Part shown: piece by piece, positions 17,277 through 26,355 of the stretch
Numbering within the stretch: position 1 is the stretch's first letter
Layout: every line of letters starts with the position of its first letter
From: Escherichia coli
GTDB taxonomy: Bacteria > Pseudomonadota > Gammaproteobacteria > Enterobacterales > Enterobacteriaceae
Assembly: GCF_003334765.1 (NCBI RefSeq)
Contig: NZ_QOWT01000038.1
Direction: 5' to 3' (one strand)
DNA length: 35,115 bases
Made by a program: the position numbers and the translations under genes
Notes under the pieces: model-generated
What the model was told of the DNA's origin: nothing
Databases searched by the model: none
What the model saw: the letters and a program-made list of their open reading frames with translations, nothing else

Positions 17277-17592
17277 CCGCTGACACAGGTCTGCGGCTGG
17301 AATTGCCTGATGCGCTACGCTTATCAGGCCTACGAGTTCAGTGCTCTACGTAGGCCGGATAAGGCGTTCACGCCGCATCCGGCATAAACTACAGCTGGCA
17401 GACAGCCGCTGCGAAGGCATTTTTGCACATGGCGTTGGAGGAATGCGCGGTTGTTGGCGGGAATGAATCACGGTAGCCGCTGACACAGATCAGCGGCTGG
17501 AATTGCCTGATGCGCTACGCTTATCAGGCCTACGAGTTCAGTGCTCTACGTAGGCCGGATAAGGCGTTCACGCCGCATCCGGCATAAACTAA
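17193..17592. repeat. Tandem direct duplication (2 copies of about 200 bp, roughly 97 percent identical) spanning the cynR 3-prime end and a REP pair
   Basis: 17193..17390 and 17393..17590 align base-for-base with 5 mismatches; each copy ends in GCCTGATGCGCTACGCTTATCAGGCCTAC ... GTAGGCCGGATAAGGCGTTCACGCCGCATCCGGCA. Confidence 0.9.
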
Positions 17593-17612
17593 GCTCGCTG
17601 TAACCCAGTCGT

Positions 17613-20295: not shown

Positions 20296-20470
20296 GGGTA
20301 GGCCTGATAAGACGCGTCAGCGTCGCATCAGGCATCTGAGCATGGTGTCGGATGCGACGCGAGCGCCTTATCCGACCTACGGTTCAGGTCCGTAGGCATG
20401 ATAAAACGCGTCAGCGTCGCATCAGGCATCGGCACACAGTGCCGGATGCACCGCGCGACGCATCCGACAA
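20296..20470. repeat. REP/BIME cluster between prpE (3-prime end) and the codB promoter
   Basis: Alternating GTAGGCCTGATAAGACGCGTCAGCGTCGCATCAGGC and GTCGGATGCGACGCGAGCGCCTTATCCGACCTAC-type palindromes. Confidence 0.85.
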
Positions 20471-23885: not shown

Positions 23886-25055
23886 TTACTGGCGCTTATC
23901 CAGCGCGACAAACGGGCGGTCTTCCGGTCCAACATAATTGGCGGAAGGACGGATAATTTTGTTGTCCTGACGTTGTTCGATAATGTGCGCCGCCCAGCCG
24001 GTGACGCGGGCGATAACAAACAGTGGTGTGAACATCTCGGTGGGAACGCCCATCATGTTGTAGGAAACAGCAGAGAACCAGTCGAGATTGGGGAACATCT
24101 TTTTGCTCTCCCACATCACCGTTTCCAGGCGATCGGCGATGTTGTACATCTTCAGCGAGCCGCCTTCCTGCGAGAGCTGCTTCGCCACACGTTTAATCAC
24201 CTGGTGGCGCGGGTCAGCGATGGTGTAAACCGGATGACCAAAACCAATGACCACTTCTTTGTTTTCCACGCGCTTGCGGATATCTGCTTCGGCTTCGTCC
24301 GGCGTTTCGTAGCGTTGCTGGATCTCCAGCGACACTTCATTCGCCCCGCCGTGTTTTGGCCCGCGCAGTGCGCCAATCGCGCCAATAATCGCGGAATACA
24401 TATCAGAGCCGGTGCCCGCAATCACCCGACTGGTAAAGGTGGAGGCGTTAAACTCGTGTTCGGCGTACAGCACCAGCGAGATATGCATCGCCTTTTCCCA
24501 GCTTTGCGATGGCTTTTCGCCGTGCAGCAGATGCAGGAAGTGACCGCCGATGGAGTCGTCATCGGTTTCCGGTTGGATGCGTTCGCCGTTGTGGCTGTAG
24601 TGATACCAATAAAGGAGAATCGAGCTAAGCGACGCCAGCAGTTTGTCGGCAATATCCCGCGCGCCAGAGACGGTATGCCCCTCTTTTTCTGGCAGCGTGC
24701 AGCCGAGCGCGGAAACACCGGTGCGCATAACATCCATCGGGTGCGACGCCGCCGGTAAGGCTTCCAGCACGGTACGCACGTTAGCCGGTAAACCGCGCAG
24801 GGCTTTCAGTTTCGTTTTGTAAGCGGCGAGTTCGTCACGGGTCGGCAGTTTGCCGTGGATCAGCAGATGCGCCACTTCTTCAAATTCGCAATGTTTCGCC
24901 AGATCAAGAATATCGTAGCCGCGGTAATGCAGGTCATTGCCACTTTTACCCACGGTGCAGAGCGCCGTATTGCCCGCCGGAACGCCAGAAAGTGCCACAG
25001 ATTTTTTCGGTTTAATGACATGGGTACTGTTTTGCAGGATCGTTGTGTCGCTCAT
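23886..25055 (-). CDS. prpC: 2-methylcitrate synthase
   Basis: 389-aa ORF of the citrate synthase family; operon context. Confidence 0.95.
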
Positions 25056-25093
25056 GTTGTCCTCGTCATTGTTATCATTTGTAGGGTCGAGAT

Positions 25094-25375
25094 TGTTGTC
25101 GGATGCGACGCTATGCGTCTTATCCGACCTACAGTTCAGTTCACCCCGTAGGCCTGATAAGTCGCGTCAGCGGCGCATCAGGCATCGGTTGTCGGATGCG
25201 ACGCTATGCGTCTTATCCGACCTACAGTTCAGTGCACCCCGTAGGCCTGATAAGTCACGTCAGCGGCGCATCAGGCATCGGTTGTCGGATGCGACGCCAT
25301 CCGTCTTATCCGACCTACAGTTCAGTGCACCTCGTAGGCCTGATAAGTCGCGTCAGCGACGCATCAGGCATCGGC
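25094..25375. repeat. BIME array: three tandem 93-94-bp units, each a REP pair, between prpC and prpB
   Basis: Unit GTTGTCGGATGCGACGCTATGCGTCTTATCCGACCTACAGTTCAGT.CACCCCGTAGGCCTGATAAGTCGCGTCAGCGGCGCATCAGGCATCG repeated at 25094, 25187 and 25281 with a few substitutions. Confidence 0.9.
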
Positions 25376-25401
25376 TGTCGAATACAATCAACGGGCGTTT
25401 T

Positions 25402-26292
25402 TTATTTCACCTGGCTACGGGCAAACAGGTTGTCGAGCTTCTCTTCGTACTGGTAGTAGTTGATGCTTTCGTACAGCTCGTTGCGGGTCTGCATGGTGTC
25501 GATGACGCTTTTCTGCGTGCCTTCCTGGCGCAGGACGTTGTAGACATGTTCAGCGGCGCGGTTCATGGCGCGGAACGCTGAAAGTGGGTACAGCGCCATT
25601 GCGACATGGGCGCTGCGTAATTCGTCGGTGGTAAACAGCGGCGTGGCACCAAATTCGGTGATGTTGGCGAGGATCGGCACCTGCACCGCATCGGCAAACT
25701 GGCGGTACATGGCGAGTTCGGTAATCGCCTCCGGGAACAACATCTCGGCACCCGCTTCAACATAGGCCTGCGCACGCTCGATCGCCGCATCCAGCCCCTC
25801 TACCGCCAGAGCATCGGTGCGCGCCATGATCACAAAATCAGGATCGGTTTTCGCATCCACCGCCGCGCGGATCCGATCCACCATCTCTTCTTTCGAGACG
25901 ATCGCTTTATTCGGACGATGACCGCAGCGTTTCGCACCAACCTGATCTTCAATATGCAATCCTGCCGCACCGGCTTTAATCATCGATTTCACGGTGCGCG
26001 CCACGTTAAAGGCCGAAGAACCAAAACCGATATCCGCATCCACCAGCAGCGGCAGCGAACAAACGTCGGTGATACGGCGAATGTCGGTCAGCACATCATC
26101 AAGGGTAGAAATACCGAGATCGGGCAGCCCCAGCGAACCTGCCGCCACGCCACCGCCAGAAAGATAAATTGCCTGATATCCGGCACGCTGCGCCAACAGC
26201 GCATGATTAGCGTTGATGGTGCCAACAATCTGCAATGGATTTTCTTTAGTCAGTGCAGCGCGAAACGCTTTACCTGGAGAGTGTAGAGACAT
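25402..26292 (-). CDS. prpB: 2-methylisocitrate lyase
   Basis: 296-aa ORF of the PEP-mutase/isocitrate-lyase superfamily; first gene of prpBCDE. Confidence 0.95.
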
Positions 26293-26339
26293 AGCCCATC
26301 CTTTGTTATCAACTTGTTATTTGCGTTGATAAAGACAAA

Positions 26340-26355
26340 GCAAGGGGTGTGCCAC
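26340..26355 (-). promoter_or_regulatory. Sigma-54 (-24/-12) promoter of prpBCDE
   Basis: Minus strand reads TGGCAC-ACCCC-TTGC (plus strand GCAAGGGGTGTGCCA), matching the sigma-54 consensus TGGCAC-N5-TTGC, about 45 bp upstream of the prpB start; PrpR is a sigma-54 activator. Confidence 0.8.

Follow-up and report, generated by a model that had tools for sequence, protein, structure and literature searches.

The spacer between prpB and prpC, within the prpBCDE operon of this Escherichia coli sequence, carries the tandem repeat array catalogued as REP25, an identification that is near certain. The reading that joins the available evidence best, to which a probability of about 70% is assigned, is that REP25 acts in the mRNA as a stabiliser and attenuator favouring prpB over prpCDE, that its number of units changes by recombination and that the array is dispensable. 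The class of REP25, the variability of its copy number and its probable function are already in the literature; the present analysis adds the spectrum of alleles (0, 1, 3, 4 or 5 units, with no 2), a difference of one unit from the MG1655 array, the presence of the array in E. albertii and the inconsistent annotation of the open reading frames (ORFs) that lie over it.

The array was delimited in a window of 35,115 nucleotides, the whole stretch of DNA that was analysed. Tandem Repeats Finder (TRF) reported a single tandem array at 25095-25380 (period 93, 3.1 copies, 95% matches, 0% indels, score 523), and an ungapped repeat finder returned three in-register copies at 25095-25197, 25188-25290 and 25281-25383, with identities of 100, 98 and 93% and spacings of 93 and 93. 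Combined with the REP catalogue of MG1655, these results define a REP25 array of 3.1 x 93 bp, of BIME-2 type, at 25095..25383 on the minus strand, in the transcribed but untranslated spacer between the two genes. The initial annotation had described three near-identical units of 93-94 bp between 25094 and 25375; the number of units and the location hold, while both programs give 93 bp for every unit and the limits were off by 1 base on the left and by 5-8 bases on the right. The periodicity for which self-alignment had been proposed as a check is thus 93 bp, with no indels. Chance alone would place the REP core motif in the window 0.2 times; it was found 20 times. In 24900-25600 a generic repeat finder returned no inverted repeats, as short imperfect stems escape its seed and extension settings; the palindromic stems of the array units were revealed by folding and by explicit dissection.

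Read on the minus strand, the spacer of 346 nt consists of a 32-nt leader, six alternating palindromic units and a unique tail of 42 nt. The leader (25370..25401) runs from the prpB stop codon to the first palindromic unit, and its last 12 nt (TCGACAGCCGAT) are a partial extra unit, corresponding to the "0.1" reported by TRF. Unit 1 (25334..25369; GCCTGATGCGTCGCTGACGCGACTTATCAGGCCTAC) is of the Z2 type, begins 32 nt past the prpB stop codon (TAA) and has a predicted hairpin of -21.4 kcal/mol. It is followed by unit 2 (25284..25318; GTAGGTCGGATAAGACGGATGGCGTCGCATCCGAC), an inverted Y-like variant with a predicted hairpin of -16.3 kcal/mol, by unit 3 (25241..25276), again of the Z2 type (-14.4 kcal/mol), and by unit 4 (25191..25225), again an inverted Y-like variant (-17.8 kcal/mol). 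Dissection identified unit 5 (25148..25183) as Z2-type and unit 6 (25098..25132) as an inverted Y-like variant, the end of which lies 42 nt ahead of the prpC ATG. The unique tail (25056..25097) holds the Shine-Dalgarno motif GAGGA at 25060-25064 and belongs to a flank that has been kept in E. albertii and Citrobacter; like all the elements above, it is read on the minus strand. The linkers measure 15 nt where units stand tail to tail and 7 nt (AACCGAT) where they stand head to head. The description of each repeat as an inverted REP pair is thereby borne out, as the six palindromic units alternate between the Z2 type and the Y-like variant.

The Z2-type units (GCCTGATGCG..CTTATCAGGCCTAC), with the consensus GCCTGATGCGCCGCTGACGCGACTTATCAGGCCTAC, match the Z2 unit of REP325 at 32 of 36 positions and its Y unit at 28 of 36. 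The Y-like units (GTAGGTCGGATAAG..CGCATCCGAC), with the sequence GTCGGATGCGACGCTATGCGTCTTATCCGACCTAC, are a variant or hybrid type: compared with REP325, they have 28 identities to its 34-nt Y unit and 29 of 36 to its Z2 unit; their outer stem, GTCGGAT/ATCCGAC in place of the canonical GCCGGAT/ATCCGGC, carries a compensatory double change (C-to-T and G-to-A). Fifteen distinct units differ from one another at few stem positions. The conserved GTAG/CTAC foot of REPs is present in every unit, as GTAGG or, in the opposite reading, CCTAC, and each stem is interrupted by a mismatch; the array is extragenic, as REPs are, no part of it reaching into prpB or prpC. By the published definition, a BIME-2 combines z2-type with y-type units joined by a short linker and is repeated in tandem, the number of copies differing among strains (PMC3333891). 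The prp array has z2 units, REPs in opposite orientation joined by short linkers and tandem copies in a number that is variable among strains, and is of BIME-2 type by that definition, with the proviso that its y units are divergent and that "atypical BIME" is an equally possible class. A supplementary table of a recent preprint lists REP25 of MG1655 as "Tandem", at 349970-349606, between prpB and prpC (bioRxiv 10.64898/2026.03.23.713779). The distances found in the window, 32 nt from the prpB stop to the array and 42 nt from the array to the prpC ATG, agree exactly with these coordinates.

The genomic context is that expected of an internal segment of one transcription unit. In matching E. 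coli records the ORFs on either side of the array are annotated as prpB (2-methylisocitrate lyase; 25402-26292, minus strand), the operon gene upstream of the array, and prpC (2-methylcitrate synthase; 23886-25055, minus strand), the first gene downstream of it, so that the placement of the repeats in the prpC-prpB spacer of prpBCDE was correct from the outset. Further downstream lie prpD and prpE, and prpR is divergent, on the plus strand. The only sigma-54 -24/-12 element matched in the window (TGGCACACCCCTTGCT; 26339..26354, minus strand) stands 47 nt ahead of the prpB ATG, and none was found within the spacer. Between 24800 and 25700 there is no sigma-70-like promoter and no site resembling an intrinsic terminator, and no sense-strand ORF crosses the array. 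Since the spacer is devoid of promoter- and terminator-like sites, the sigma-54 element occurs only upstream of prpB and no sense ORF runs across, the array should be carried inside the prpBCDE mRNA as an untranslated segment; the literature describes this mRNA as polycistronic.

Folding of the sense RNA, which had been suggested as a further check, predicted a structure of -153.1 kcal/mol, far more stable than that of dinucleotide shuffles (-116.8 +/- 5.0 kcal/mol; z = -7.25, with 0 of 100 shuffles as good). Single palindromic units were predicted to form hairpins of -14 to -21 kcal/mol, and the mean pairing probability inside the array was 0.72. The proposal that stem-loops tune prpB against prpCDE, already made in the initial annotation, is plausible on the basis of folding and analogy and in line with the literature. 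Mechanistically, transcription of prpBCDE would start at a single sigma-54 promoter, dependent on PrpR and located upstream of prpB, and the array would be part of the message. Its six G+C-rich hairpins would then behave as a module resembling a 3'-UTR of prpB, at which exonucleases proceeding 3' to 5' would stop, stabilising the prpB segment; their removal would require a nuclease competent for structured RNA, such as RNase R. In the other direction, the long, structured and untranslated gap would lead to partial and partly Rho-dependent termination, and fewer transcripts would extend into prpCDE. The net result would be a higher expression of prpB than of prpCDE, with a strength set by the number of units. 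This dual mechanism of stabilisation and attenuation, put together from sequence, structure prediction and analogy, is somewhat more probable than the contrary.

Several published observations bear on such a mechanism. By qPCR in one strain, prpB was induced more strongly than the downstream prp genes. According to a paper citing Simonte et al. (2017), the operon is under post-transcriptional control, possibly with RNase R targeting the prp repeats; in the summaries of two papers, RNase R degrades prpBCDE mRNA and its loss allows K-12 to use propionate anaerobically. Genome-wide, the presence of REPs between co-oriented genes has been correlated with expression biased towards the upstream gene. 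A regulatory effect of the array is in any case not required for the pathway, since about 38% of the E. coli genomes sampled have a 44-bp spacer free of REPs. A different effect on translation, the stalling of ribosomes, is said to arise where no more than about 15 nt separate a REP from a stop codon, as Liang, Rudd and Deutscher reportedly found in 2015; it should not apply at prpB, because the first hairpin lies 32 nt past the stop codon.

Two other systems offer a close comparison. In 1987 Newbury, Higgins and colleagues are said to have described the REP hairpins of malE-malF as barriers to 3'-to-5' exonucleases in a polycistronic mRNA. As in the prp operon, hairpins there lie between genes of one operon and a higher expression of the upstream gene has been proposed; the malE-malF element is a short REP pair whose effect has been demonstrated, whereas prp has a tandem array of several units whose effect would follow by analogy. 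REP325, the analogue that has been studied most, located between yjdM and yjdN and the source of naRNA1-6, is likewise made of tandem Y and Z2 pairs in opposite orientation between co-oriented genes of one operon, and its Z2 units are identical to those of the prp array at the 32 of 36 positions given above. It differs in its period and copy number (100 and 5.8, against 93 and 3.1 in the prp array), in its linkers (17 and 12 nt where the prp array has 15 and 7 nt) and in its Y unit, which reads GCCGGAT...ATCCGGC instead of the variant GTCGGAT...ATCCGAC. In a 2026 preprint REP325 was reported to be a partly Rho-dependent attenuator, with partial sensitivity to bicyclomycin, the deletion of which raises expression of the downstream yjdN about 8-10-fold; the mRNA of the upstream yjdM was stabilised and the nucleoid was not compacted. 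The same preprint found large variance and context dependence, and no general effect of terminal REPs on half-life.

The number of units was compared over E. coli strains, as had been recommended, in two systematic draws from the 5,221 complete genomes with prp flanks (59 rows each, 115 distinct records), alleles being called with flank-only queries and the length of the spacer taken from the span between the matches. A spacer of 44 bp, with 0 units and no REP, was found in 44 of the 115 genomes (38%), and one of 155-160 bp, with 1 unit, in 31 (27%). Three units (345-346 bp) were present in six genomes (5%), four units (439 bp) in 30 (26%) and five units (532 bp) in four (3%); a two-unit allele was absent from the 115 genomes sampled. 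Strains therefore carry 0, 1, 3, 4 or 5 units, in agreement with published work describing the prp repeats as variable among strains. In a megablast search, a two-unit query of 193 bp matched 3160 of 5426 genomes, about 40% having no match anywhere, which agrees with the share of empty alleles; the search further shows that the unit sequence is essentially confined to the prp locus. The array of MG1655 (349606-349970) shares locus, flanks and unit sequences with that of the window; it comprises 4.1 units in a spacer of 439 bp, whereas the window has 3.1 units in 346 bp and lacks the internal 93-bp unit 3 of MG1655. Strain CUPS03 carries a different three-unit allele, in which another unit is missing, so that units are lost recurrently. 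Such a natural series of 0, 1, 3, 4 and 5 units, in an inducible operon that is well understood, offers a handy test of the dose of REP hairpins.

The history of the array was approached through the useful outgroup loci among the matches listed, which came mostly from distant Proteobacteria, namely those of E. albertii, two Citrobacter and two Photorhabdus, a set without Salmonella and E. fergusonii. In E. albertii the array recurs between prpB and prpC, left flank and unit architecture being the same as in E. coli; it has 3.5 units there, with seven palindromic units. One or two REPs of a different kind occupy this spacer in the two Citrobacter species, and no REP was found in that of Photorhabdus. 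Conservation of the right flank (CCTACAAATGATAACAATGACGAGGACAAC) extends to E. albertii and, in an altered form, to Citrobacter; the empty E. coli allele is devoid of 9 nt of this flank. As these 9 nt belong to an otherwise conserved flank, the empty 44-bp allele looks derived, in a comparison of few outgroups. At the DNA level, the number of units would shift through recombination between the units of the array itself, and the array is held to be dispensable on the grounds that many strains have no units.

The same data allow a tentative alternative, to which we attach a lesser though real probability, in which the array persists as a REP/BIME insertion that is selfish or neutral to selection and whose copy number changes by recombination or through a REP-associated transposase, any effect on prp being incidental and unselected. 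Polymorphism for presence and for unit number within a single species, together with the roughly two fifths of genomes in which the 193-bp two-unit piece found no match, is compatible with such an element; the different REPs of Citrobacter and the REP-free spacer of Photorhabdus look like repeated colonisation of a permissive site; and variability in copy number is a general property of BIMEs, for which an amplification model based on a transposase exists (PMC3333891). It is opposed by the long persistence implied by an array with the same flank and architecture in both E. coli and E. albertii, by the genome-wide correlation of REPs between co-oriented genes with upstream-biased expression and by the published qPCR results in which prpB induction exceeds that of the downstream genes. 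Neutrality and the stabiliser/attenuator reading are not mutually exclusive, as a molecular effect is possible without selection.

A stronger form of the stabiliser/attenuator reading would make the number of units (0, 1, 3, 4, 5) a heritable dial of the prpB:prpCDE ratio and of an RNase R-dependent shutdown of the operon. We consider this extension doubtful; if true, it would explain why strains differ in the speed and the oxygen conditions of propionate use, for instance the slow K-12 as against fast isolates associated with Crohn's disease.

It has also to be considered whether the main role of the array could be played at the level of DNA and not of RNA, as a putative strong site of binding and cleavage by DNA gyrase serving as a topological buffer in a strongly inducible operon. 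The architecture of the prp array is that of a BIME-2, and, in the accessible part of one study, gyrase cleavage sites in vivo are significantly over-represented in BIME-2 elements, with a preference for y-type units and independently of transcription (PMC6379681). The same part of that source places cleavage sites in only a subset of BIME-2 elements and does not have the prp locus among those that it names (PMC6379681). The y-type units of the prp array are moreover divergent, sharing with the 34-nt Y unit of REP325 the 28 identities given above, and a main role in gyrase binding is in our judgement unlikely.

The presence of three rather than four units could in principle reflect a collapse of the repeats during assembly of the source record. 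The prpB//prpC repeat appears on a list of repeats that break contigs in a short-read assembly of K-12 (PMC3045373), and units 2-4 of MG1655 are nearly identical, so that a collapse would yield exactly the sequence of the window. The 1301 bp around the array are, however, 100% identical in at least 21 complete genomes, including K-12 GM4792, with 99.9% identity in the other 39 of the 60 rows listed; these identical three-unit arrays come from unrelated sources, and the distinct three-unit allele of CUPS03 is a second instance of the same unit number. A collapse is for these reasons improbable in the present record; the unit count differs among records of closely related strains and is a trap for annotation and assembly alike.

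The likeness to REP325 raises the question of whether the units could be processed to putative small RNAs resembling naRNA4, which would bind HU and condense the nucleoid. The Rfam model of naRNA4 (RF02564), which represents a Y-l-Z2 pair, matched all three full units on the minus, transcribed strand, with 63.1, 57.7 and 35.1 bits against a gathering score of 59.5; the only match in the array above that score (25151-25222, minus strand, 63.1 bits) covers the head-to-head units 4 and 5. Over the entire window the model gave five matches above threshold, distributed over four separate REP loci including the prp array. As three further REP loci are thus matched above threshold, the model is a detector of the Y/Z2 repeat class and not of a specific gene. 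Although the source of naRNA4, REP325, is architecturally equivalent to the prp array, the model is generic for Y/Z2 pairs, the 2026 preprint reported no measurable compaction of the chromosome by REP325/naRNA4 and did not see REP-REP contacts, and an operon that is silent in the absence of propionate would hardly suit a structural RNA, which together make such a function very improbable.

Two long ORFs on the plus strand run over the array. One (24937..25581; 214 aa, TTG start) is antisense to prpC, the array and prpB, the other (25103..25456; 117 aa, ATG start) is likewise antisense, and both are translations of the repeat units. The 29-letter peptide quoted in the initial annotation is present in the ORF at 24937..25581, in which the repeat recurs three times in slightly differing form. 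Because 93 bp equal 31 codons, a frame that is free of stops in one unit stays open throughout the array; with three, four and five units the ORF at 25103 accordingly measures 117, 148 and 179 aa and that at 24937 measures 214, 245 and 276 aa, a growth of exactly 31 aa per unit. Their frames differ between the one-unit alleles of 155 and 159 bp, and the ORFs are gone in the 0-unit allele. Neither has a significant match in NCBIfam or Pfam, and an exact look-up of three ORF products in a collection of 15 billion proteins returned nothing. A match to the SepSecS family was rejected as noise (17 bits against a cut-off of 225 in NCBIfam; i-Evalue of 2.7 in Pfam).

In MG1655 no CDS is annotated in the prpB-prpC spacer, the locus tags skipping from b0331 to b0333. 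In one five-unit genome the frame that starts at 25103 is annotated as WP_001526095.1, "hypothetical protein", and a product of that name is listed at the locus in two more genomes with five units. That either ORF is a real protein-coding gene is scarcely credible: in spite of these products of the NCBI pipeline, and of the ribosome coverage published for the repeat ORF yahH, both frames run antisense to the one transcription unit that is known, with no promoter-like site found in 24800-25700, they overlap and are open simultaneously, their length follows the number of units exactly, they are lost or altered in the shortest alleles, and family models, the protein collection and the MG1655 annotation all fail to support them. 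The view that the two ORFs are phantoms generated by the repeats is accordingly upheld. Gene callers still annotate repeat-derived "hypothetical proteins" on the long alleles of REP25.

A sister array in the window, REP23/yahH, in the gap between yahG and yahI, is at 34858-35115 and is cut by the end of the window. It is also a BIME with a period of 93 bp and a long repeat-peptide ORF, and its units, unlike those of the prp array, are canonical Y and short Z-type. The possibility that yahH was the missing b0332, an ORF between prpB and prpC, was ruled out, since yahH is b0322 and lies over REP23. This ORF is currently annotated as a CDS in MG1655 and is co-oriented with its neighbour genes, whereas the prp ORFs are antisense and unannotated in that strain; it has been reported to be covered by ribosomes in EHEC.

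Among the 115 E. coli genomes sampled, the spacer between prpB and prpC was found to contain 0, 1, 3, 4 or 5 of the 93-bp units that make up REP25, and no two-unit allele was present in this sample. The one-unit allele exists in two forms, of 155 and 159/160 bp respectively, the 4-5 nt of difference being located in the tail-to-tail linker joining the two palindromic units; the 155-bp form is carried by O157:H7 and O55:H7 strains. In E. albertii NBRC 107761 (L056:3953-4358), the array is closed by a half unit: after a seventh palindromic unit, of the Z2 type, comes a truncated GTAA..., to which the conserved sequence flanking the array on the prpC side is immediately joined. The first base of this flank is A and not G.

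The five-unit allele of E. coli ECA64 (L006:548-1087) is annotated in RefSeq as a "hypothetical protein" of 179 aa (WP_001526095.1), which consists of repeat units only. A "hypothetical protein" is likewise listed at the locus of the prpB-prpC array in NZ_AP022222.1 and NZ_OZ392432.1. The five-unit genome of SW070910, which shares an identical spacer with ECA64, is devoid of such a call.

At the prpC-proximal edge, REP25 overlaps by 4 bp with a fragment listed in a supplementary table to a screen for Rho binding in vitro (MG1655 349966-350088, + strand, corresponding approximately to window 24979-25101), whose strand is antisense to prpC. In E. coli SCU-171 (NZ_CP054363.1, near 4184692-4184931), the match to prpB is limited to the 5' part of the gene (window 25661-25900) and the annotated neighbour of this partial prpB is a cytosine permease. 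Taken together, these two features suggest a deletion extending from within prpB, across prpCDE, to codB.

Other REP clusters are present in the window. The one located between prpE and codB, directly downstream of prpE (20297-20467), is catalogued in MG1655 as REP26; it matches naRNA4, the Rfam model of a Y/Z2 REP pair (RF02564, gathering score 59.5 bits), with 71.6 bits and has in common with the prpB-prpC array the unusual unit variant GTCGGATGCGACGC. An additional Y/Z2 cluster lies at the extreme start of the window (6-137) and gives the strongest naRNA4 match (79.3 bits). A further BIME array, with the same 93-bp period as the prpB-prpC array, occupies positions 34858-35115 and continues past the window end, with at least 2.8 copies at 95% matches and two naRNA4 matches (78.0 and 72.4 bits). 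This array is REP23, whose MG1655 counterpart is situated in the yahG-yahI gap, where the current annotation of that strain includes the CDS yahH (b0322, "putative uncharacterized protein"). Ribosome coverage of the REP23/yahH repeat ORF in EHEC was claimed in a 2016 paper.

Finally, the gap between the convergent genes codA and cynR harbours a tandem duplication of 200 bp (17193-17595; 2.0 copies, 96%), each copy of which includes a REP pair. Since the cynR ORF terminates at 17276 and the repeat begins within its 3' end, about 84 nt of the cynR 3' end are duplicated downstream. The codA-cynR gap is 336 bp long, the same length as in MG1655.
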